DNA from: Tubiluchus corallicola
Lineage: Eukaryota; Animalia; Priapulida
Length of the DNA stretch: 64,000 bases
Assembly (NCBI GenBank): GCA_030141605.1
Contig: JAQGDQ010000047.1
Coordinates: forward strand, 496,001 to 560,000
Direction: 5' to 3'
Position 1 is the stretch's first letter. Each line of letters opens with the position of its first letter. The notes below the pieces were generated by a model, which saw only the letters and a program-made list of their open reading frames with translations, was not told where the DNA came from and did no database searches. Below are positions 29,870-42,854 of this stretch, piece by piece. Both the position numbers and the translations under genes were made by a program.

Positions 29870-32100
29870 TTAGTAATATAATGAAAGTGCGATTATGATG
29901 CGAAGTAAATGCAAACTATGAAAATAAGTGTGCTCATTATCCTCAGTATCCATATAGGTGAAAGAGTGCCTTATCATCCATAATCGTTTCCTAGCTCGTT
30001 TGGATATTTCATCAGTGTGTTCATCAAATGTGAGAAACTGGTCAATTAAAACACCCAAGTCTTTCTGTTTTGTTACTGCTATTGTTGGAAGTGACTAATT
30101 TGTATCGTTGCGCACATAGTAGCCATGAGTTACATTGTCTTTCCCTAAGTGTAGAACCTTACACTTTCCCACGTTGAAAGGCATTTGGCAAGTTTGTGAC
30201 CAAGAGTCTAATAAGTTGATATCATTCTGGAGTCTATGGTAGTCACTATTTGACCTCAGTATCCTGTAGATTTTTGTATCATCTGCAAACATTTTCATTG
30301 CTGAATTTAAATTGTCTGGTAGATTGTTGATGAACATGAGGAATAGTATAGGCCCTAACACACTTCCCTGTGGCACTCCGCTTCTAACGGGCCTCCATGA
30401 AGGTTTCTCTGAGTTGATTCGAGTGCATTGTGAGCAGTCTTTATCCAGTTGTAGAGGTTGCCAGAGGTGGCATGTGCGGCAAGTTTTAATATGAGTTTTC
30501 TATGTGGGACTTTATCGAAAGCCTTCTGCAAATCGTAAAATATTTTGTCAACAGAAGACCCTTCATTCCAGTCGTTTAAAGGCTCGAGCAGGTTTAAAAT
30601 GCAAGAATTTCCTTTTATGAATCCGTATTGAGAGACAGTAATAAGCTCATTGACAATAAGATGGTCGTGAGTAGCATTTCTAATTACTTTCTCAAGAAGT
30701 TTACATATAATTGATGCCAAGCTTATTGGTCTGTAGTTGGTTTTTAGTTCACACTCTCCTTTCTTAAAAATAGGAGACACAATTGAATTCTTCCATGCTT
30801 GTGGTAATTTGCCCTCATTAACTGATTTTTTTAAAAATACATACTAATGGTGCTGTTAAACTTGCTACTAATTGTTATTTCAAATGGGTGAATACCAACT
30901 GGTCTCATTGAGGAATCAGCTTTGAGGTCAGTTACGGCTTTGGATACATTCTCTTCAGTAATGCAAATGGTGTTAATCTGTGCATTCGCATAGGTGATTG
31001 GTACAGCTGCTCGATCATCTTCTTTTGCGAAAACACTAACAAAATATTCGTTAAGTAGTTCAGCTTTGCATGCATCATCAGCGGCTTCCTCTCCATTTTC
31101 CTTTAATTTAGGGACCTTGTGATTGACCTGGAAACATTTAGTTGCGATTTTATTGACATTAATAGTTGTTTTTTGTAATTTTTCTGTGCAATTTTTCATA
31201 GTTCGAGTGGTAGTATTTCTTTCATATTTCTTTCAACATACAAGTTGAAACTAGCAAGATCTTGCCTAGCACATTATAATCTCAATTTAGCGCATTTGGA
31301 TTTTACAGCTTGAAGAGCTTCTTTTATCATCCAGGCTAGTTTGAGTTTACATTTTACTCGACATAGTAACAGGTGGAAACTGGTTCACTGTTTCCGTAAA
31401 GAAGTACTCCCAGGCTTGTTGGGTAGACTTATATGTTAATGCTTCCTGCAAATTTGATTGTAAGAGTACGGTATTCAATTGGTCGTAGTTTGCTTTAAAA
31501 AAATTTCTTCGAGAGAAATGAGCCTTTGTTTGTACTACATCAGCACATATATCAAAGTTCAAGATGTTATGTTCGCTTTTTCCTAGTGGTTCATTAACGT
31601 TTACATTACAAATGGGTTCTGGATCATTTTATAAAAATTAGATCCAAGCAGCTGGGATTTTGTCCATGTTGGTATAGTAGATTTTCGCATACAGTATCCT
31701 TGAATTGAGCTTCTAGCAGTGTGGCACTCAGGTCGCGCTTTGTCATGTTGATCGTTGTCTGCAGACGAGGACGGACTCCTATAAATGCACCTTATAATAT
31801 ATTTGTTAGATCTAGAAGTTGTTAGTTGAATCCAAGATTTTCATTGAAATTATAATTGTTGAAAAAATCTACATCATTTACTGAAAGTGTTTCCCTGGCA
31901 AAAATTAATACACCACGTCCTGCATTCCAGTGATCCAGTGTGTGTGTGTGTGTCAGCAAATGGTGTGTAGTCATATTAAATGAAGAATTTTTTGGTTTTA
32001 CCTCTAGTGTGCTGATTACATCCAGCAATTTTCAAACCTACTGAAGTTTGCAGTTATTCCAGCTTGTTACTTAATGAATCAGCATTAAAAAAGAATGTAG
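29870..32100 (-). mobile_element. Decayed CR1-type LINE ORF2 (APE + reverse transcriptase)
   Basis: PIFKKG..NYRPISL, YDLQKAFDKVPH, PQGSVLGPILF, FADDTK and FNVGKCKVLHLG across frameshifted ORFs. Confidence 0.92.
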
Positions 32101-32615
32101 CATTAACTTGAATGTATCAAGTTAACTAAAGCAAGAAAGTGGAATGCAACAAGCAGGGATATAGCCAGCTTAAATATTTAAATGTTTCAGCAAGTAAGCC
32201 CCCCTTACTAAAATCATCTTAAGTAGTAGACAAACAAATGACAGCCAGGCCAATAATCGATGCATGGTTGCGCTTGTAGTTGCTACTCACTAATATAATT
32301 GTGCTTAAATTATGTGAGCATATGGGATATAAGGCTAAATTTTCATTTAAAAGGGAATTCGTTTATTTCTACTGACAAGTGTGGTACTACTCTTTTTTGA
32401 TAAAATGTGATGTTGAATATTTGTATAACATTTGATGTTGAATATTATTTGTCTAGTTCACACTATCTGGGAAGCCGGTTTTGAATTTTTCTTAATTTGT
32501 GATTTTTGTGTTTTTAGGTGGTAAAGTAATTGCTTTTATTGTATATTATAGAACATAGTAAAGCTTGAACATATATACTCGCGTCCTGGATGGAAAATTT
32601 GCTAAAAGTAGAGAG

Positions 32616-35606
32616 ATGGGTGTGTCATTGTGCAGGGCATCAAGCCATTCATTCAAGGTTGCACCAGCAAGGCAACAAGCCACAGATACAGCATTTAATG
32701 CGGAAAATGAATTAGATGATGAAAATAAAAATGTCACTAAAGGTTCAGGATTTTATCGCCAGAAATCTGATATTGAAATAGAAGCCACAGCTGAAACGCT
32801 GAGATTTTTTGATACTGCACAGGTGTCTTTTGCTTCCACTGTGTCTTTAGATTCTGCTAGCTGCAGTAACGGAAATCTTCAAAATCACGGTATGCACAAT
32901 GAAGGCCATAAACTCATTCCCTATACACATAATGAGGAAACTGTTCTTCAAGGATATGATCATGGTTCTTATGTTAAAGAATGCAGATCTTTGCATGGAA
33001 GTAGTAAAATAAATGATACGCTCATTTCTGAGGGAGATGACATAACTTTTCATGAAAGCAGCCATGGGATTCACAAGACAAAACATGTTTCAAATCAATC
33101 TAAATTAAATGAACAATATAGCGTGCTCCAAAAATCTTCAGTCGTATCTGCTGGAGAATGCTGGGAGAATGTTAAAAAAGCCTGGCATATTATAGAACAG
33201 CAGTGCAGCAATGTGAATTCATTTTGTTTAATGAGAGATCCCAATTTTCAGCCTCAAGCTCACAAAGTTGTGCGAGTGTTTGTTTCTTCAACATTTGCAG
33301 ATTTTCACAGTGAACGTGAAATTTTGGTAAAGCGTGTATTTCCAGCCCTCCGCGAATGGTGCAACTCTCATCACTTACAGTTTATTGAGTGTGACTTGCG
33401 CTGGGGTGTGCCAAAAGAAACTACAACAAGTGCAACGATCAGAACTTGTTTGGAGGAAATTGACCGTTGCTATGCGTCCACTGATGGGAAACCTTTTTTT
33501 ATTGGTTTAATTGGTGAAAGATATGGTTGGATTCCCAGTGCATCAGATGTGGCACCAGATGTTCAAAAAGACTACCAGTGGATACCTGGTATCTCTATCA
33601 CTCACATGGAAATATTGCACGGAGCTTACCGTCCAAAAAGCTGCAATGCAATATTCCTTTTCAGAAATGAAAGCTGTATTGAAGGCATTCCTTCTCATTT
33701 CATAGCAAGATTTCGTGACGATGATCCATTACCTAGAGCTCATTTGCGTGAACTAAAATCAAGGTTACGGTTTACATTCCCAAAGCAAGTATTTGATTAC
33801 CAGTGTCGATACGAAGGGGTTGAATCCAGCACGGGAACAGAAAAAGTTGTTCTGTCCGATTTGGAAAATTTTGGGTGGAAAGTTATTGGTTTTTTTAAAG
33901 ATGCAATAAAAACAAAGTATCCTCAACACATGAAACAAATGACAAGTACACCTGTTGAACAAGAGACTGACTTGCAGAACTTTTTTGTTAAACAGCATTC
34001 ACAACTTTTTCTTGGCAGAGAGCAGGAACTTGGAGAATTAACTAGGTATGCTACAGAAAAGCAAACATGCACCAAACCTTTTAGTGACATCTCAGACTTT
34101 TACAGAGATGATAAAATGATTGGTAATCATATGATGGTTGTTATTGGTGAAGCAGGCATAGGAAAGACTGCTCTATTAGCCCGATTAGTGAAAAATTGGA
34201 TGAAAAGTGAGAATAAGGTCTTCTACCATTTTGTTGAAGCAACTCCAACTAGTCGGGATCCTGCCATGATTAGTGCACGCCTTATTGCTGCTTTAACAGA
34301 AGATATGCCTGATTTTGATGTTCCTGATCCATATAATATGGATTTTAAGGACATGGATGAACTTCTCAAACAAATTTTTCCAAAATGGCTAACATCTGGC
34401 AAAGAACTTTTGATTGTGCTAGATGCAGTTGATATGCTTTCCGATAACCAAAGCCCAGGTCATTTGTCTTATGTACCACACACATTTCCAGGAAAGGTAA
34501 AGTGTGTTGCTTCTTGCAAGCCGTCATCTTTTCCAACATTGGCTCGCCTGGAAAATCGGAAACCATATAAAATGACCTTGAATGAATTATGTGTGGACAT
34601 GTGTGAGAAATTTGTAGAGAGGTACCTGGGACAATATAACAAGAAACTTGATCCTGAGCAAATGCTCTTGTTAGTGAGTAATCCCGGATCAAAGCTACCA
34701 CTTTGGCTGGCTCATGCCTGTGAGGAATTACGTGTGTTTGGTGAATTCACAACAGTCACTAATCGAATTAAGTCACTGCCACCTACCAAAGATCAGCTCT
34801 TGGCAGATATTCTTCGTAGGCTAGTGAGCGAGGATGCTACTGGATGTTTGGAAACAGCAGTGTTTTTAATTGCTGCATCACAGAATGGCATACCAGAGAA
34901 ATACATGAGATTACTTTTAGGAGATTACACAACAGAAACCCCAATAGCTCAGGCACTGTGGTCCGAAGTCAGAAGAAACCTGAAGGCATTTTGTAGAAAT
35001 ACAGGTGATTACATGCAGCGTTATATATTCACTCACAGCGCCATATTGAAGATTATCTTGGAAAAGCTAAATGCTGATGTTGAAAGAGTAGTGCATAAGC
35101 AGCTAGCTAACTTTTATGAAAATTACTGTTCAGATCGCCAGGTAATGATTGTTGAACTTCCCTATCACTTATATCACTCTGGTCAAGTGTCAAAGCTGGT
35201 AGAATTTTTAAGAAGTCGAAAGAGCTTTGGAGTGCCACGGATGACTCGTCAGAAGTACTTGCAATTGACGAGGTGTTGCAGTATTGCTAAGGCTGGATTC
35301 GGTCTATCCCAAAAGGTATATGCCTGCAAATTTTGTTCTGTGAAACAAGGATTAACTGCAAGCTTAAAAAATTCGTGCACTGTGTGTTTGGAATTCATTC
35401 CTAAAATATTAGTCAAAGAGGCTTATATCTGCCATCGACACCGATACAATGTTCCACCAAACTGGATCAAATGTTTTTACTGTGAAAAAATGCAAGCAAT
35501 GGGCAATAAAGCAATCGAAGCGATACCTTTAAATTTGTGTCATATTTGTGGTGGGCCGGGAAAGGAAACCTGCTGCAAACTTGGACTTACAAGTAAGCAA
35601 TTCTAG
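32616..35606 (+). CDS. DUF4062 + NACHT-type STAND NTPase (TEP1/NPHP3/NWD-like) with a C-terminal Cys-rich zinc domain; single coding exon
   Basis: Uninterrupted ORF; first ATG at 32616 (MGVSLC). DUF4062 motifs VRVFVSSTF.D...ERE.L, DLRWGV, CLEEIDRC and FFIGLIGERYGW. Walker A GEAGIGKT (34146-34169), Walker B LLIVLDAVD, PLWL helical motif. AATAAA at 35608. Confidence 0.92.
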   Translation: MGVSLCRASSHSFKVAPARQQATDTAFNAENELDDENKNVTKGSGFYRQKSDIEIEATAETLRFFDTAQVSFASTVSLDSASCSNGNLQNHGMHNEGHKLIPYTHNEETVLQGYDHGSYVKECRSLHGSSKINDTLISEGDDITFHESSHGIHKTKHVSNQSKLNEQYSVLQKSSVVSAGECWENVKKAWHIIEQQCSNVNSFCLMRDPNFQPQAHKVVRVFVSSTFADFHSEREILVKRVFPALREWCNSHHLQFIECDLRWGVPKETTTSATIRTCLEEIDRCYASTDGKPFFIGLIGERYGWIPSASDVAPDVQKDYQWIPGISITHMEILHGAYRPKSCNAIFLFRNESCIEGIPSHFIARFRDDDPLPRAHLRELKSRLRFTFPKQVFDYQCRYEGVESSTGTEKVVLSDLENFGWKVIGFFKDAIKTKYPQHMKQMTSTPVEQETDLQNFFVKQHSQLFLGREQELGELTRYATEKQTCTKPFSDISDFYRDDKMIGNHMMVVIGEAGIGKTALLARLVKNWMKSENKVFYHFVEATPTSRDPAMISARLIAALTEDMPDFDVPDPYNMDFKDMDELLKQIFPKWLTSGKELLIVLDAVDMLSDNQSPGHLSYVPHTFPGKVKCVASCKPSSFPTLARLENRKPYKMTLNELCVDMCEKFVERYLGQYNKKLDPEQMLLLVSNPGSKLPLWLAHACEELRVFGEFTTVTNRIKSLPPTKDQLLADILRRLVSEDATGCLETAVFLIAASQNGIPEKYMRLLLGDYTTETPIAQALWSEVRRNLKAFCRNTGDYMQRYIFTHSAILKIILEKLNADVERVVHKQLANFYENYCSDRQVMIVELPYHLYHSGQVSKLVEFLRSRKSFGVPRMTRQKYLQLTRCCSIAKAGFGLSQKVYACKFCSVKQGLTASLKNSCTVCLEFIPKILVKEAYICHRHRYNVPPNWIKCFYCEKMQAMGNKAIEAIPLNLCHICGGPGKETCCKLGLTSKQF

Positions 35607-38600
35607 CAATAAAGAGTATCATACCTCTTTGAATATTTTTGAAATATAATATTTCCAAGTTTATATTTAACTTGTACCATAATTAAAGCAAATTGTGATA
35701 ATCTGATAACAGGAACATATTTTGTTTATATATTTTAATATGACTGCAATGATATCTATTTGCATTAGTTATATATTTTAATTAGCAAATTAATTTTGCA
35801 CTTGTGATACCATTTGAGCCTGTTTTATAGCACATTTTAGAATGATACAATTACTGCCTGTGATAGCTGTTTGTTAAATATTTTATATTGATACATAAAT
35901 TTTGGAAAACTATCTTAGCAGCACAAAATTTTGACTGCATTTGTATGTTGTAGTTGTACCATCATTATAATTTTGATGACTCCAGCTGTTTGTGATGCAT
36001 GCGTGGAATATGAATTATAGATATTATGTGTCCAAGTTCATCTTTTTAGGAGAAAAATAAAATAGTGTTTTGAGCATATGCTGGACAACTGAAGTTAAGC
36101 AGTGCTGCACCTAGTTAGTAAATTGATAAGTGATTGCCAGGAAAATTGCTTCTGTGTGGTGATCATACAGCAGTTGGCTATTGGAATTTTTTGTACTAAA
36201 TTGTGTGTAAATTCTAGTAGACTAAATAGTCAGTAGGCTATAGATTGCAATTGACACACTTGAGTTTAGGTGTTCTGAGCTGAAATACTGAATTTGCTAG
36301 GTAGGAGTACAAATATAAGCAGCATAAATTTGTTAAGTTTGTCAGGGTTCTACTTATTTCTTTAGATTATGGTTGCATTAAAATAAAAGAATAAAATTGA
36401 TGTTACACAAAACGAATAGTCTGCATTCTTTCAGTATCTAATCACACTGTCAGTTTTTAAATTCAACTACACCTTTAAGAATACATGTAATCTAGCTTTA
36501 TTTTAAAAATGAAGGGGAATTTTAAAAATGTCTCAAAAACCTGCCATATAAAGTTATATTATCTTACGTTACATTTACCTGTTTGAAAGACATAATATAA
36601 CTGAAAAAGAAACTTCTTAATAATTTAAATGTTTGTTCCAGCTGGTAAAATGTCAGTGTTTTGCAATAACCCCACTCCATAAAAACATACACTGGTTCGT
36701 CACATGTATTGATGTTATTGACAAGACAAAGTAATTTTGACTTTTACTTAAGTAGTTAGTGATGTTCACCACAAATGCTCTGATTATTTTGCAAACTCTA
36801 TGCAAAGTTATATAAATTTTACTTCAAAGAACTTAAGATGAACTCAAAATGACTGCATCTAACGGTCATCGCAGGAGTTTAAAATTTTCTACAACATTGC
36901 TGTTAATACAACTTCTTGGCACAATGAGAGCACATGTAAGTGATATAAAATTTCAGAGCGAATTTTTTTAATTTTATGTAATGATAGCATCTTTTTGTGG
37001 TTTAAATGCCTGTATTATGTGGTACTTGCATGACTATAATGTAATAATAAAACTATTTCAACTTGTATATCAATTACAACAACTTGACAGTATACAACAT
37101 TTTGACAAGTGGCATGCCTGAAATGCAGAATTACTGTTTTATCCACCACTCATGTATAGCCAATGGAAATTTACTACAGCAATTATAATTTCTGCCCTGA
37201 AGTACATTTCACTAATATAGGAACTGTATTTTAATGTTATACTATTCGAAAGTGTTTTGAGCTGTTATCCACTGTTAAGATAAACCATGCACTAGAAGTC
37301 TGGGTATCACCTTTATACTGCAAAATTATAACAGATATTTTTTATAATATTAATGTATAATTATTGGCATACATTTCCCCAATCAGAAGTGCAGAATTTT
37401 TACTAATACTTGATATTATTGTTTCTAGCTTCGGCTGGCATGATTTATAAACTCAGTTCTCACTAATTGCGTTAACTGAAACATGGTTAAATGAAGATAC
37501 AGAAAAGATGTTTAATTTACCCAGATATACTCTGGTGAATAGAAATAGGAAGAATAAAAAGCGGGGTGGTGTAGGGTTGTTCATCAAATCAGACATACCG
37601 TTTGTAGTGAGAAATGACTTAACATCAAGCAATTCTGACCTTGAAAGTATTTTTATTGAAATTCAAAAAGTTAAAGGCAAAAACATAGCAGTCGGCGTGA
37701 TCTACAGACCACCCGGGCGAAACCTACCAACATTTATTAAACACTACTAAACTATCAATAATAAATTAACAAAATAAGCAGTTATTTTTGTTAGGGGACT
37801 ACAATTTGAACTTATTAAATCACTCTTCGCATCAAGACGGGACTGAGTTTCTTGATACTATTATTACTAATTATGTTTTTCCAGTTATTACTTGTCCAAC
37901 TCGAATTACAGCATATAGCTCTACATTAATTGATAATATTCTAACAAATGTTATACAGCATCAGTATAGAGCTGGCAGTCTCTTAGTAGATGTCACCGAT
38001 CACTTACCAATTTTCTTAATTATTGATTTAAACATAGCAAAATCTCAAACTAATAATATCGACAACGTAATATACAATAACCATGTAAAAAATAAATTAA
38101 TAAGTGATATAGAATCAATTAACTGGGAGGAATTATATAGTACTTCAGATCCCGAAGCAGCTTGCAATCTATTTCTGGAAAAAATTTAATGAAGCTTACT
38201 TTAAAAATATAAAAATTACTGATGCTTCCATGAAAACTAATGTCATTAAAAATCCTTGGATAACTCCAGCCATATTAACCAGTATCAAGCGCAAAAACAA
38301 AATGTATAATTCATTAATCAAACAAATCTCAGATGTAGCTGGGACCGACTATAAACAATATCACAATAAGCTAAATAATATTATTAAAAATGCTAATCTG
38401 ACTTATTATCAAAATGAGTTAGCCAATTTAAAGAAAACATGGGGAATTATGAAAGAAATAATGTATTCCTGGTGCGAACAGTCGTTTAAAAATTAATAAT
38501 AAATTAATCACCAATCCTAAATCTATAGTAAATCATTTTAATGACCATTTTTTGCAGATTGGACAAAAATTAGCTGATAATATAGAAAATGTTAATATCA

Positions 38601-39318
38601 ACTATGAAACTTATTTAAGAGGCAATTATCCTTCTACCTTTCTCTTTACACCAGTCACAGAATCTGACATCATGAATATATGCAAGTCATGTGATCGAAA
38701 TAAAGGAGCTGGTAGAGATAATTTGCGCCCCAAAGTTATTATAGATGTAATTGAAAGTATCATTACCCCTTTAACACACATAACTAATAATTCACTTAAA
38801 ACTGGCACGGTTCCTTCTAAATTAAAACGATTAATTATCATTCCTATCTTCAAATCTAAGGATTCTCTGGACATTAATAATTATAGACGTATCTCGCTGT
38901 TACCTTTTCTCAAAAATACTGGAAAAAGTTGTTTGCAATAAAATATGATCTTATTTGGATCATCAAACATTATAAACAATAAGCAGTTTGGTTTTCAGGA
39001 AAACAGCTCAACCGAACTGGCTTTGATAAACACTGTAGAGAGTATAACTAAATGCAATGAACAAAATAAAGTAGCGGTAGGTGTAACATCCGCAAGATAC
39101 AGCCACAACAGTTGATGAATTAGTGAATACTAGAACGAACGTTTATTAAAATGAGCGTCAGTTTAGATAGTTGACCAAAGCAAATCCCACATTACATAAC
39201 TTCTACCTCGTCATCATCATACGCCCGCTACGTCTAATTGTAGACATTGGGCAGGCAGAATTCTAAAATAAAAGAAATGAGCCTTCAGAAAGGTAAACGC
39301 AACAGTAACTTCTACCTC

Positions 39319-40287
39319 ATCATCATCTCTGGAGTCACACGTCATTCGACATGACCCTGCTGATCACTTTACTCCATGCTGCCCTGTCACCTGCAACCTT
39401 CCATGTCTCTGCATTTTTGATATCTAATGATGTGTTGATAAGATGTTTTTGGATGAAATTGATATTAGTCAGCAGCTGTCCTCCTTGCGGTTTCTTTCCT
39501 TTCTGTAGTGTTTCTTTGAAAGCTAACTTTAACTGACTGTCATGTGGTAGTCGTATAGCATGTCCTATCCATCTTAATCTTCTCCTTTTGATTTTAATTG
39601 TCCATTCCTCTGCTTTGACTTTATTGTACAGATCCTGGTTTGATATTTTGTTTGGCCATTTTATTCCTAGAATGTTCTTGTAGTTTCTTCTTTGAAATGC
39701 ATTAATTTCTGATTCGTGTTATGCTTGAATTGTGCATAATTCTGAGTTATAGAGAAACACAGTTTCCACAAGTGCAGCAAAGATCCTTAATTTAGTATCA
39801 AAACTGATCCTCTTACTTTCAAAAAATTTTGTTAATTTGGAATATGCAGCTTTATGTGATACTCTTTTGTTTTATCTTTATTTAGTATAAGATCCATTTC
39901 TTTTAAATTTGTTTCTATTTTGATTTTGACATCATCTATTTCATCTTTGGTTCTTGCTATCCATGCAATATCATCAGCATATTGCAGGTCTATGGTTGTA
40001 ATGAAGTTCGTTTTATTAGCATAATTGTGTTCTAATTCTGTTCCCGATAGTAGCTTTTTTGTGTCCTGATTTGTATAATTGTGGTCACAAAGTTCTTTTC
40101 TGGGTGTACTGTTCCTGTCCATTAATGCTGTGGCTAGATAAAAAGTGAAGAGAACAGGACTTAGGCAATCTCCTTGAGGTATTCCCTTATTCGTGGAAAA
40201 TGAATCATTCACTCTGCCTTCACATCTAACACTAATTAGATCTTCCAATAATATTGATATCATATAAATATTGTCAGGATTAAGTAT
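39319..40287 (-). mobile_element. 5'-truncated RTE-like LINE (RT core to 3' end, (GAT)n tail)
   Basis: GIPQGDCLSPVLF, QYADDI and LRWIGHAIRLP. Tail ATCATCATC on + at 39319. Confidence 0.9.
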
Positions 40288-40296
40288 TTCTACCTC

Positions 40297-40710
40297 ATCA
40301 TCATCATATCAGATTCTAATGAATCATACGTCCAGGGACATGATTCTGCTCATCTCCCTATGCCAGGATTCCCTGCTTGCCGCAATGCCCCAAGTGCATT
40401 TATTTCTAAGAATCAATGCTGAAGTGTTTAAATCTTTCTGTGCATAACCTATATATGTTAACATTTGTCCTCCTGCAGGTTTTTTAGCTGGTTCTTTGGC
40501 TTGTTGAAGAGCTATCTTCACTGGAAGATCATCAGGTAGTCTAAGCATATGCCCAATCCATCTTAAATGGCGTCTTTTTATTTTTCTTGTCCAAGGTTCT
40601 TTTATTCTTTCATATAGATCTTTGTTTGAAGTTTTCTTTGGCCATCTAATACCCAAAATGTTTCTGTAATTTCGCCTTTGAAACGCATCGATTTCAGCTT
40701 TATGATTCGC
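40297..40710 (-). mobile_element. 5'-truncated RTE-like LINE 3' end, (GAT)n tail
   Basis: GIRWPKKTSNKDLY...LRWIGHMLRLPDDLPVKIAL...RESWH. Confidence 0.9.
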
Positions 40711-40715
40711 TTCTC

Positions 40716-40900
40716 TTTCTTCTTCAATGAATCACACGTCCAGGGACATGATTCTGCTCAGCTCTCTATGCGAGGACTCCCTACACGCTGCAATGCCCCA
40801 AGTGGATTTATTTCTAAGGATCAATGCTGAAGTGTTTAAATCTTTCTGTGCAAAATCTAAGTATGTTAACATTTGTCCTCCTGCAGGTTTTTTAGCTGAT
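40716..40900 (-). mobile_element. Shorter copy of the same LINE 3' end, (GAA)n tail
   Basis: 40726-40897 is a diverged direct repeat of 40318-40490; tail TTTCTTCTTC on +. Confidence 0.88.
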
Positions 40901-42854
40901 TTGCTTTTAATGTCCAGAGCTCAGAGTTAATATGCGGCCCGTTTAACAACAATGAGGGAAACCTTAGTAAGCACAAACATCAAAATATTAGCCATAGACA
41001 AAAACAACGTCACAGTAGATATATTTTGTGACCTCTCTAAGGCCTTTGATACTGTTAATCATAAAATACTTCTTGCTAAACTACATCATTACGGTCTTAG
41101 AGGGGTAGCAAACGCATGGATATCTAGTTATCTTCTTGGGAGAACACAAGTGGTTCGATATAATAATGTAATTTCAAATGAAGCTTCCATAATCCATGGG
41201 GTACCACAAGGCTCAATTTTAGTTCCGCTTATATATTTTTAATATATATAAATGACATAAAATATTCTTTAGATAGTCCAAATCTGTTCCAGTTTGCAGA
41301 TGATACGAGCATATTCTTTGAGTTAAATAAGGCTGATAATTTAATATATATTAACCGTGAATTACAAAATATTGTTATTTGGTTCAAAACGAATAAGTTA
41401 CCATTAAATTCTACAAAAACTAAATGTATCATTTTTAGAGCAAGATACAAAAAAATCCAAGTAATAATGGTCATATTAAATCAATAATTCCCCAATTGAA
41501 ATCATTCAGGAAATGAAATTTTTGGGAGTCATTCTAAACGAACACATGGATTGGAAATCGCATATAGACATGATCAAAAGTAAAATTTCAAAAAGTATAG
41601 GAGTCATATGTAGGACTGTAAATTGCTTTACTAATTTACATCTAATAATCTTATATAATTGTTTAATGTTACCATACCTCACACACTGTTGTCTCCTTTA
41701 GGGACAGTGCGTGAGGTATGGTAACATTAAACAATTGCCGAGTTATCCAAAGAAAATTTCTTAGAATCACTTATAATCTTAGAAAAAGAGAACATCTTAA
41801 TTTAACATGTTTCAAAACTAATGGAATTTTAACTGTTGGCGATTTATAACACATGAATATAGCTGTATAAAACACATACATGTATAAAACTAAATATCAT
41901 CTTTTTCCAACGTTCTTTAATAATCCAGTCCAACCTAATAATCGGTGTTATGCAACCAGAATGAATGAGTTTGTCGTAAATTTCTGTAGAACAGACGTAG
42001 CACGGCAATTTATAGCAAAAGTTGGTCCAAGACTTTTGATGTTAAATGATGAATTAAAAACTGTTCAGCCAATTCAAAAATTTAAAAAGAAATATAGAGT
42101 AATGATTTTCAACAAGTACAACACTTCTTAATATCCTACAGCCACTGCAGCAGTCATACCACAGGCTTGGTACAGATTATTCAAAACAAGACATCATTGA
42201 TAAATCTTTAGAGCTGATGTAAACATCGCACAATCTACTATCTTTCTTCCTACTATTTCCACTAACACATCCTTCTACCCTTCCTGTTTGATCTAACCTT
42301 TCTCCCAGTTCTTTTTTTGTTAGTTCATGCATTCTTTTTTATCTGGTTTACATGAGAGTGGACCTGTACAAGCCTTTGCTTCTCTAGCCAACTGCAGTAG
42401 AATTATTCTTTTATGATAACGACAGTGTATGAAACATAATAATTTAATACAGTATGAGGTAAAAATTTTGATGTCACTGTGTATTTAACGTCAATATATT
42501 GTACTTAATGTGACAATAATGAAAACTTCATATTTTCTATTTCGTATTTTTCACAAACTCATTTGACTCAAGTAGGCTTTTCTAATCGTAGTTGCACCTG
42601 CCTATATTGTTAATCAACAGTGCTTTTAATTTTTTCTGCATAATAATTAAGGGCACTATCGTCTACAAAGGTCTTATCTTTATTAAGAGTACTTAAAAAC
42701 GAATGTATTTGTGAAGCTTCTTAAAGTTTGTAATGGATAATATATTTCTATAGGTTTTATTATATTCTTCTTTAAAAAACTTCGGTCAGCCGTTGACTTG
42801 TTGACAATTACGCTATTACCGCATTCAGCAGCAGCTACGATAAATCGAGCTGTC

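Follow-up and report, generated by a model that had tools for sequence, protein, structure and literature searches.

A TeTIR-NACHT gene ending in a cysteine-rich domain

The DNA analyzed here (the window) is a stretch of 64,000 nucleotides from the priapulid Tubiluchus corallicola (assembly GCA_030141605.1, contig JAQGDQ010000047.1, positions 496,001 to 560,000). It contains an uninterrupted open reading frame (ORF) of 996 codons followed by a TAG stop codon (32616..35606; this and all other features are on the forward strand unless stated otherwise), which lies in a stop-to-stop frame of 1014 codons (32562-35606) and opens with a Met-Gly start at 32616. This TeTIR-NACHT-zinc knot ORF encodes a TIR-like domain of the DUF4062 type (also called TeTIR or NIR), a NACHT-type STAND ATPase module, a short helical arm, and a C-terminal domain that is rich in cysteines. 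An initial annotation had read the protein as a STAND ATPase with a DUF4062 effector, whose last ~105 amino acids contain a lone Cys, five Cxx(C/H) pairs, and a trailing CCKL. The motif string is present at the positions given there, and both domains were recovered by Pfam (DUF4062, residues 220-314, E 9e-11; NACHT, residues 506-671, E 5e-10). The stretch with the many cysteines thus forms the C-terminal end of this one ORF as a domain of it.

A contig from a second sequencing run was 94% identical to the window over 35053-35287, with 15 differing sites. Of the 11 that were listed inside the ORF, 10 were synonymous, against an expectation of 21% for random change, and the frame is therefore under purifying selection. 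On the basis of this excess, the intact frame, and the conserved sites described below, a pseudogene or chance ORF was rejected. Contigs of other sequencing data covered parts of the ORF plus the stop codon.

It had also been proposed that a splice donor near 35593 might lead on to further exons. A donor-like GTAAGC does exist 3' of the last zinc ligand codon (35593..35598), but it is a candidate only, and no WD40 or TPR exon was matched downstream in the window. A tblastn search of the window with 305 proteins, among them relatives with TPR or WD40 ends, produced 281 matches; all of these lay within the ORF, in which Pfam found no repeat domain. A likely poly(A) signal, AATAAA (35608..35613), begins 2 bases past the stop codon. 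Given this signal, the lack of a downstream repeat match, and the fact that relatives end likewise, onward splicing to repeat exons was rejected.

The zinc domain is conserved around twelve ligands

The C-terminal domain (35268..35585) carries 11 Cys and 1 His as zinc ligands. Their codons start at 35274 (lone Cys), 35325/35334, 35376/35385, 35430/35439 (Cys/His), 35472/35481, 35538/35547, and 35571 (lone Cys), and the corresponding motifs are RCC (35271-35279), CKFC (35325), CTVC (35376), CHRH (35430), CFYC (35472), CHIC (35538), and CCKL (35571-35582). Pfam assigned no family to the last 116 residues of the ORF. The 12-ligand spacing did not occur once when the domain was shuffled 100,000 times, and of 604 six-frame segments of the window only 1 had it, which was that of the ORF itself; as the allowed ranges were derived from the family, this control is partly circular.

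In an alignment of the window domain with the tails of 35 relatives, which had been picked because the pattern was present, all 11 Cys and the His were invariant. As an independent check, a profile of this 36-row alignment was searched among 1.84 billion representative sequences, where it found 119 proteins. Conservation of the ligand columns across 171 domains was 95-100%, apart from that of the first Cys (85%, the remainder being gaps in fragments), and the His was present in 98%. The best conserved motif other than the ligands sits in the long first loop (Phe 50%, Asn 64%, Lys 54%) and is partly degenerate in the window protein. The domain is basic, with a median net charge of +8 in these 171 domains (+9 in the window protein). 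Outside its ligands it is the least conserved folded part of the protein, with a mean identity of 20% in an alignment of 45 family rows, against 51% for the TeTIR domain, the highest. Covariation over the 171 domains, with invariant columns removed, gave no pair above the shuffled alignments (top z up to 4.3, shuffles 4.6-6.8), and self-comparison for 3-fold repeats produced two off-diagonal matches, of which one was weak (58% probability, 24 columns) and the other insignificant.

The predicted fold resembles PHF5A and Rds3

The initial annotation had compared the domain to the spliceosomal protein PHF5A/Rds3. The number and layout of the ligands are indeed equal to those of Rds3 (1+5x2+1), with one His replacing a Cys in motif 3. 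The spacings differ: the family medians between ligand groups are 17, 18, 16, 11, 16, and 8 residues, and those of Rds3 are 12, 4, 13, 9, 12, and 10, so that the first loop has a median of 18 residues in the family and 4 in Rds3. While PHF5A/Rds3 (PF03660) is a stand-alone, nuclear, nearly invariant protein with only Cys ligands, the window domain is fused to a larger protein and has longer loops.

An AlphaFold2 model of the domain, based on the 36-row alignment, had a mean predicted local distance difference test score (pLDDT) of 86.8 and a predicted template modeling score (pTM) of 0.77, and the five models were similar in confidence. When it was compared to 48,161 representative solved chains, only two reached a Z-score of 2, namely 5zya_D (Z 5.1, 80 of 85 residues, 3.5 Å) and 5gm6_J (Z 4.9). 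Re-alignment of the 189 candidates from Foldseek raised this to four chains, all of them PHF5A/Rds3, the best being human PHF5A (5syb_A; Z 5.8, 82 of 90 residues, 3.5 Å, 20% identity). The other three (5zya_D, 6en4_D, and 5gm6_J) were taken as PHF5A/Rds3 from the titles of the entries, the chain lengths, and a statement that 5gm6 contains Rds3. All four were colinear with the model from end to end, over 80-84 residues, with Z-scores of 4.9-5.8, root-mean-square deviations (rmsd) of 3.5-4.3 Å, and identities of 17-21%, much of which is due to the ligands. In the Foldseek search itself, PHF5A/Rds3 chains had query TM-scores (TMq) of 0.40-0.45, and every other listed row 0.25 or less. No C1, RING, PHD, or LIM chain reached Z 2, although weak partial matches to such domains exist in both sequence and Foldseek searches. 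For the backbone fold of the model, the structural comparison that had been suggested as a check came out in favor of PHF5A/Rds3, the sole match.

Secondary structure assignment of the model with DSSP placed helices at motifs 1 and 5, strands on both sides of motif 4, and bridges beside both lone Cys residues, and no helix at motif 3. PHF5A is described as having helical motifs 1, 3, and 5, knuckles at motifs 2 and 4, and a stem formed by both termini (PMC5458519). The modeled helices at motifs 1 and 5, the strands around motif 4, and the terminal bridges agree with this description. In Rds3, the three zinc sites are formed by Cys23/26/58/61, Cys30/33/73/76, and Cys11/46/49/86 (PMC7614390), and the same pairing is predicted here from the order of the motifs and the fold match: one site would be shared by motifs 1 and 4, another by motifs 2 and 5, and the last by motif 3 (CxxH) and both lone Cys residues at the termini. 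A putative trefoil knot with this pairing is implied by the full-length colinear alignment and the DSSP assignment of the predicted structure.

Several results weigh against this assignment. The Foldseek E-values were not significant, with the best PHF5-type row (E 0.38) ranking below two RING rows, and Z-scores of 5 to 6 are in the middling range of the structure-comparison tool, in which a value below 8 may reflect a common arrangement. Profile searches of solved structures, run with two family profiles, one relative, and a 15-row subset partly chosen for weak Pfam PHF5 scores, did not list PHF5A at an E-value of 10. The Pfam PHF5 profile matched 1 of 36 proteins (E 0.006) and 5 of 109, in all cases below threshold and out of register, with best scores of 17.5-18.7 bits against a cut-off of 26.7. 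C1 domains scored as well as or better than PHF5 (8 of 36 proteins; E 0.003 against solved structures). Finally, PHF5A/Rds3 may have been among the training structures of AlphaFold2, which can thread chains rich in Cys onto this fold.

The initial annotation had named a lack of profile similarity to PHF5 as a refutation, and this outcome came about in part, since no similarity reached significance. Judged from its sequence, the domain is not a member of the PHF5 family (PF03660). What holds of the proposed likeness is the fold match of a predicted model. Because nothing else scored and the match spans the whole domain, a PHF5-type fold is favored, and we consider the model very probably right in this respect. 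We are less sure that it reflects common ancestry with PHF5A/Rds3 rather than convergence. A search of solved structures with the single domain sequence gave no match, nor did an ESM Atlas sequence search at 0.9, and a viral fold library gave nothing at E 0.001.

The zinc domain defines an old family

A search with the core of the protein returned 87 relatives, 46 of which have the zinc domain; all but one of these 46 end within 15 residues past it. The other core relatives were TPR- or WD40-ending paralogs or truncated gene models. In total, 189 proteins with the zinc domain were collected, 98 of which are at least 300 residues long. Within this long group, 94 have the core, 2 are C-terminal fragments, and 2, belonging to one cluster, have the domain before ankyrin repeats. 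The domain is within 20 residues of the C-terminus in 93 of the 98, in agreement with the earlier suggestion that it takes the place of a repeat sensor. It does not appear to occur as a stand-alone protein; many of the short matches are exon-sized gene-caller fragments, and many short database fragments begin at the same point as the exon of the zinc domain. The sole other architecture, seen in the cluster of P0190 and P0199, has the twelve-ligand domain N-terminally in a 501-residue ankyrin/UBA-like protein, either as a genuine second use of the domain or because the tail of a gene was called wrongly. In P0032, a Lottia gene model, the domain is partly duplicated, with 7 CxxC/H motifs, either by exon duplication or by a gene-model error.

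Among named organisms, members occur in six choanoflagellate genera, Trichoplax, cnidarians, a brachiopod, molluscs, and the rotifer Seison, and, among deuterostomes, in echinoderms, hemichordates, amphioxus, lamprey, bichir, lungfish, frogs, and newts. The same architecture was therefore found from choanoflagellates to amphibians, as the initial annotation had proposed to look for in invertebrates and protists. Among the 120 of 143 rows listed in a search with a frog member, amphibians were followed by amphioxus, and no amniote, teleost, arthropod, or nematode name appeared; this is weak evidence on losses, as the bichir protein was missed too. Searching longer proteins with the domain profile gave only 3 matches, all of them already known members, and the 4 rows from outside the family in the search of representatives were Cys-repeat or cytochrome proteins that matched in many short stretches. 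No bacterial relative was confirmed among these rows, and a scan of prokaryotic genomes with one member, which detects close relatives only, confirmed none of 56 pattern matches. The family is real and conserved, and the terminal zinc domain is an old, fixed trait of it. The family is hidden by its database labels, which read "telomerase protein component 1-like" or "TPR repeat-containing".

In many animals, the zinc domain is its own last exon. In two genomic loci (L033:13178-13735 and L064:2826-3257), a phase 0 acceptor, TTTCAG, lies four codons before the first Cys, at a point where a spliced relative (L008) runs through. A separate last exon suits exon shuffling. The zinc domain was present in 5 of 71 metagenome loci, which are these two and three contigs of relatives that have no intron and end directly behind the domain. 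The gene in the window is without any coding intron, which could be due to retrocopying or intron loss.

A tree was built from 55 of the 107 core sequences, leaving out near-duplicates and truncated models. It contained clades of animal zinc-domain proteins (support by the Shimodaira-Hasegawa-like approximate likelihood ratio test, SH-aLRT, 97), of choanoflagellate and further zinc-domain rows (85), and of animal TPR paralogs (100), the mutual order of which was unresolved. The window protein grouped with brachiopod and mollusc rows (SH-aLRT 96). With all 33 zinc-domain rows constrained to one group, the likelihood was better than that of the unconstrained search, and the constraint was not rejected (approximately unbiased test, p-AU 0.74), which allows, without proving it, a single origin of these proteins.

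The N-terminus, the effector, and the ATPase

The ORF starts with Met-Gly and a Cys at position 6 (32616..32636), which fits an N-myristoylation pattern and is predicted to form a membrane anchor. Out of 79 proteins with both zinc domain and TeTIR, 41 begin with Met-Gly, and 36 fit the same pattern; many of the others appear N-terminally truncated, and a group of molluscs starts differently. Several choanoflagellate members (including P0056, P0067, P0055, and P0070) have a PH domain (PF00169) in place of Met-Gly. Both kinds of N-terminus point to the membrane, and the window protein is likely anchored there through a myristoylated N-terminus. A human paralog, NPHP3, is a myristoylated ciliary cargo. 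The start is followed by a variable linker without Pfam match, which is probably mostly disordered (32637..33257): the length before the TeTIR domain differs widely among relatives, and the last 14 linker residues were modeled with pLDDT below 50.

The TeTIR domain (33258..33923) is a predicted NADase. DUF4062 has been described as a TIR-like NADase in three recent preprints (2026.09.21.753143, 2026.05.01.722283, 2026.09.04.749371), and human TEP1's TeTIR domain, when isolated, depleted NAD+ and killed cells (2026.09.21.753143). The window domain aligns to the TIR structure of TEP1 (11gz_A) with an E-value of 2.7e-24. Mutation of F902, R914, R942, C959, R976, or E1008 abolished the activity of TEP1, and R908 was dispensable (2026.09.21.753143). 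The former six are identical in the window protein at one constant offset, and the latter is Ala. Wherever a family row extends over these six residues (42-43 of 45 rows), they are invariant. The equivalent of the catalytic E1008 (33609..33611) is Glu in 43 of 45 rows, and the remaining 2 are N-terminally truncated. On the basis of these residues, the effector is predicted to be a TeTIR NADase domain with the catalytic set of TEP1 intact.

The STAND module (33999..35066) consists of a nucleotide-binding domain, a helical domain, and a winged helix, the inner borders of which were drawn from the structure model. It contains a Walker A motif (34146-34169), with its Lys in 42 of 45 rows, and a Walker B Asp (34422). 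The second acidic position of Walker B (in the region 34422-34433) is Asp in the window protein and Asn in 34 of the 45 rows, a hint that most members hydrolyze ATP slowly or not at all. In several choanoflagellate rows with a PH domain, Walker A is degenerate or misaligned, and some of these proteins may be inactive ATPases. The full-length model (pLDDT 87.1, pTM 0.79) matched TIR structures over residues 15-235 of the model, and also STAND and related AAA+ proteins, including Avs3, RPP1, Apaf-1, and NRC, as well as Cdc6/ORC. Only the four helices of the short arm (35067..35267, by DSSP of this model) separate the winged helix from the zinc domain.

Like the window protein, TEP1, NWD1, NWD2, TTC41, and NPHP3 have a TIR-like DUF4062 domain directly before a NACHT ATPase, and the RWG loop, catalytic Glu, Cys, and Arg set of these proteins are kept in it. 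Where TeTIR proteins end in WD40 or TPR repeats (2026.09.21.753143), however, the window protein has a 105-residue zinc domain, and TROVE/VWA is absent. Its nearest core relatives are TPR-ending invertebrate paralogs annotated as "DDB_G0287407-like" or "TEP1-like" (31-37% identity). These share the first part of the arm, frequently start with Met-Gly, and form a separate clade, in which ~320-370 residues of TPR-type helices replace the zinc domain.

Proposed role of the zinc domain

Because these close paralogs have TPR arrays after the same arm, the zinc domain can be regarded as occupying the sensor slot. Starting from the observed domain order, catalytic residues, conserved ligands, terminal position, and family range, we lean slightly towards a reading in which the protein is a STAND ATPase with a predicted TeTIR NADase, whose C-terminal PHF5A/Rds3-fold domain would act as a regulatory sensor replacing TPR or WD40 repeats. 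TIR-type NADases are likewise under switch control in plant TNL receptors such as RPP1, in bacterial Avs proteins, and in SARM1, the sensors of which are LRR, TPR, WD40, or ARM repeats rather than a zinc domain.

By analogy to TNL, Avs, and apoptosome proteins, a protein held at the membrane by its myristoylated N-terminus (or, in several choanoflagellates, its PH domain) would be kept off by the C-terminal domain until a macromolecular ligand binds to the basic surface of the latter. Binding would allow nucleotide exchange and oligomerization, upon which the TeTIR domains would hydrolyze NAD+ to nicotinamide and ADP-ribose, with cell death or a signaling output as a result. As a matter of judgement only, a protein ligand seems the foremost candidate at somewhat less than an even chance; RNA or another polyanion is rather unlikely, and an anionic lipid and a metal or redox change are each clearly more so. 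PHF5A touches the intron backbone (PMC5458519), and the basic charge of the domain fits RNA, but equally an anionic lipid.

Two points speak against parts of this mechanism. Many mollusc members are without a Met-Gly start, and the isolated TEP1 TeTIR domain was active as a monomer while other Glu-bearing TeTIRs were weak or inactive (2026.09.21.753143); NADase activity and its control by oligomerization are therefore not assured here. A resistosome-like assembly is described for no TeTIR protein in the available text of the same study.

More tentatively, the PHF5A/Rds3 knotted fold, which has been held to be unique to the spliceosome, may have a second branch older than animals, serving as the sensor of a membrane-anchored NADase receptor. 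Such receptors would form a repeat-less, NLR-like class that ranges from choanoflagellates to amphibians, is apparently lost in amniotes, teleosts, and ecdysozoans (arthropods and nematodes), and would use a zinc knot to detect RNA or some other danger ligand, to which they would respond by destroying NAD+. In the available text of earlier work, Rds3 is treated as three treble clefs and no other knot family is named (PMC4506424), and Rds3 was the only structural neighbor found for PHF5A (PMC5458519). The main text of 2026.09.21.753143 contains no mention of zinc, PHF5, Rds3, or a knot, and the available texts of 2026.05.01.722283, 2026.09.04.749371, and 2026.06.25.731849 none of zinc, PHF5, or cysteine, while their figures and supplements may list such proteins. 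A full-text literature search, with most subscription journals outside its coverage, returned no paper on the TeTIR-NACHT-zinc knot architecture. If correct, this would be the first PHF5A/Rds3 knotted fold outside the spliceosome, with a bearing on the origin of the knot and on the surfaces that it offers. The zinc domain is also a C-terminal module of a third kind among the newly characterized TeTIR/DUF4062 NADase receptors. With only 105 residues, on a core of 800, it lends itself to dissection far more readily than do the WD40 arrays of TEP1, and members are present in Xenopus, amphioxus, sea urchin, Hydra, and choanoflagellates.

The alternative that survives best, though it is unlikely, is that the zinc domain is a structural cap or constitutive docking module. 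The protein would then be a helper or housekeeping NADase, and sensing would be left to another part or to a partner receptor. The family is ancient, low-copy, and roughly follows the species tree, which suits such a role, and among frogs the domain outside its ligands is no more variable (67% identity) than the arm (66%) or the nucleotide-binding domain (60%). PHF5A, too, is described as a central scaffold in SF3b (PMC5458519). Yet the domain sits where close paralogs have their repeat sensor, and its low identity outside the ligands across the 45 rows suits an outward, variable surface better than a fixed interface.

It is improbable that the His-containing site, which would join the ends of the knot to the STAND arm, acts as a labile metal or redox switch that frees the ATPase upon loss or exchange of zinc. 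In Rds3, ready exchange of the metal was confined to site 3 (Cys11, 46, 49, and 86; PMC7614390). The site that corresponds to it by order in the window protein holds the only non-Cys ligand, the His found in nearly all domains, and begins right after the last arm helix; however, the site was assigned by order and fold match only. CCHC zinc sites, moreover, are commonly structural.

With a similarly low probability, the domain could be a fusion of ordinary treble-clef fingers (C1, RING, or double zinc ribbon) that contains no knot, as the weak C1 matches, the RING rows at the top by Foldseek E-value, and the lack of a significant PHF5 profile match would suggest. Those Foldseek rows nevertheless span only about half of the domain, at TMq 0.25 or less, an rmsd of at least 6.5 Å, and below Z 2, and a series of sequential fingers would not account for the two lone terminal Cys residues or for a number of pairs that is odd.

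The initial annotation had further suggested an integrated decoy for effectors that target splicing. Such a PHF5A mimic would catch effectors or toxins by which pathogens attack SF3b, and the predicted fold and the position in an NLR-like protein would speak for it, but this is highly improbable given an identity of ~20%, much of it in the ligands, to a target that is highly conserved across eukaryotes (PMC5458519), variable loops of which the first is ~14 residues longer than that of Rds3, the lack of a counterpart to the basic C-terminal helix of PHF5A, a modulator pocket that requires SF3B1, the ancient, low-copy nature of the gene, and its probable membrane anchor.

Surroundings of the gene

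A Pfam scan of 24 further ORFs in the window found no family. Upstream of the gene, an out-of-frame ATG 26 bases 5' of the main start opens an overlapping frame of 41 codons (32590-32715). Given acceptor-like sites near 32518 and 32552, this frame may be intronic, or else a regulatory upstream ORF. The gene is flanked on both sides by broken frames, at 30095-31628 (reverse strand) and 37451-41487 (both strands), which we take from motifs in their translations to be endonuclease and reverse transcriptase remnants of the long interspersed nuclear element type. Between the gene and the latter, ~1 kb 3' of the stop codon, lies a high-copy repeat (36590-36970) with a depth of more than 1000 in sequencing run X1.

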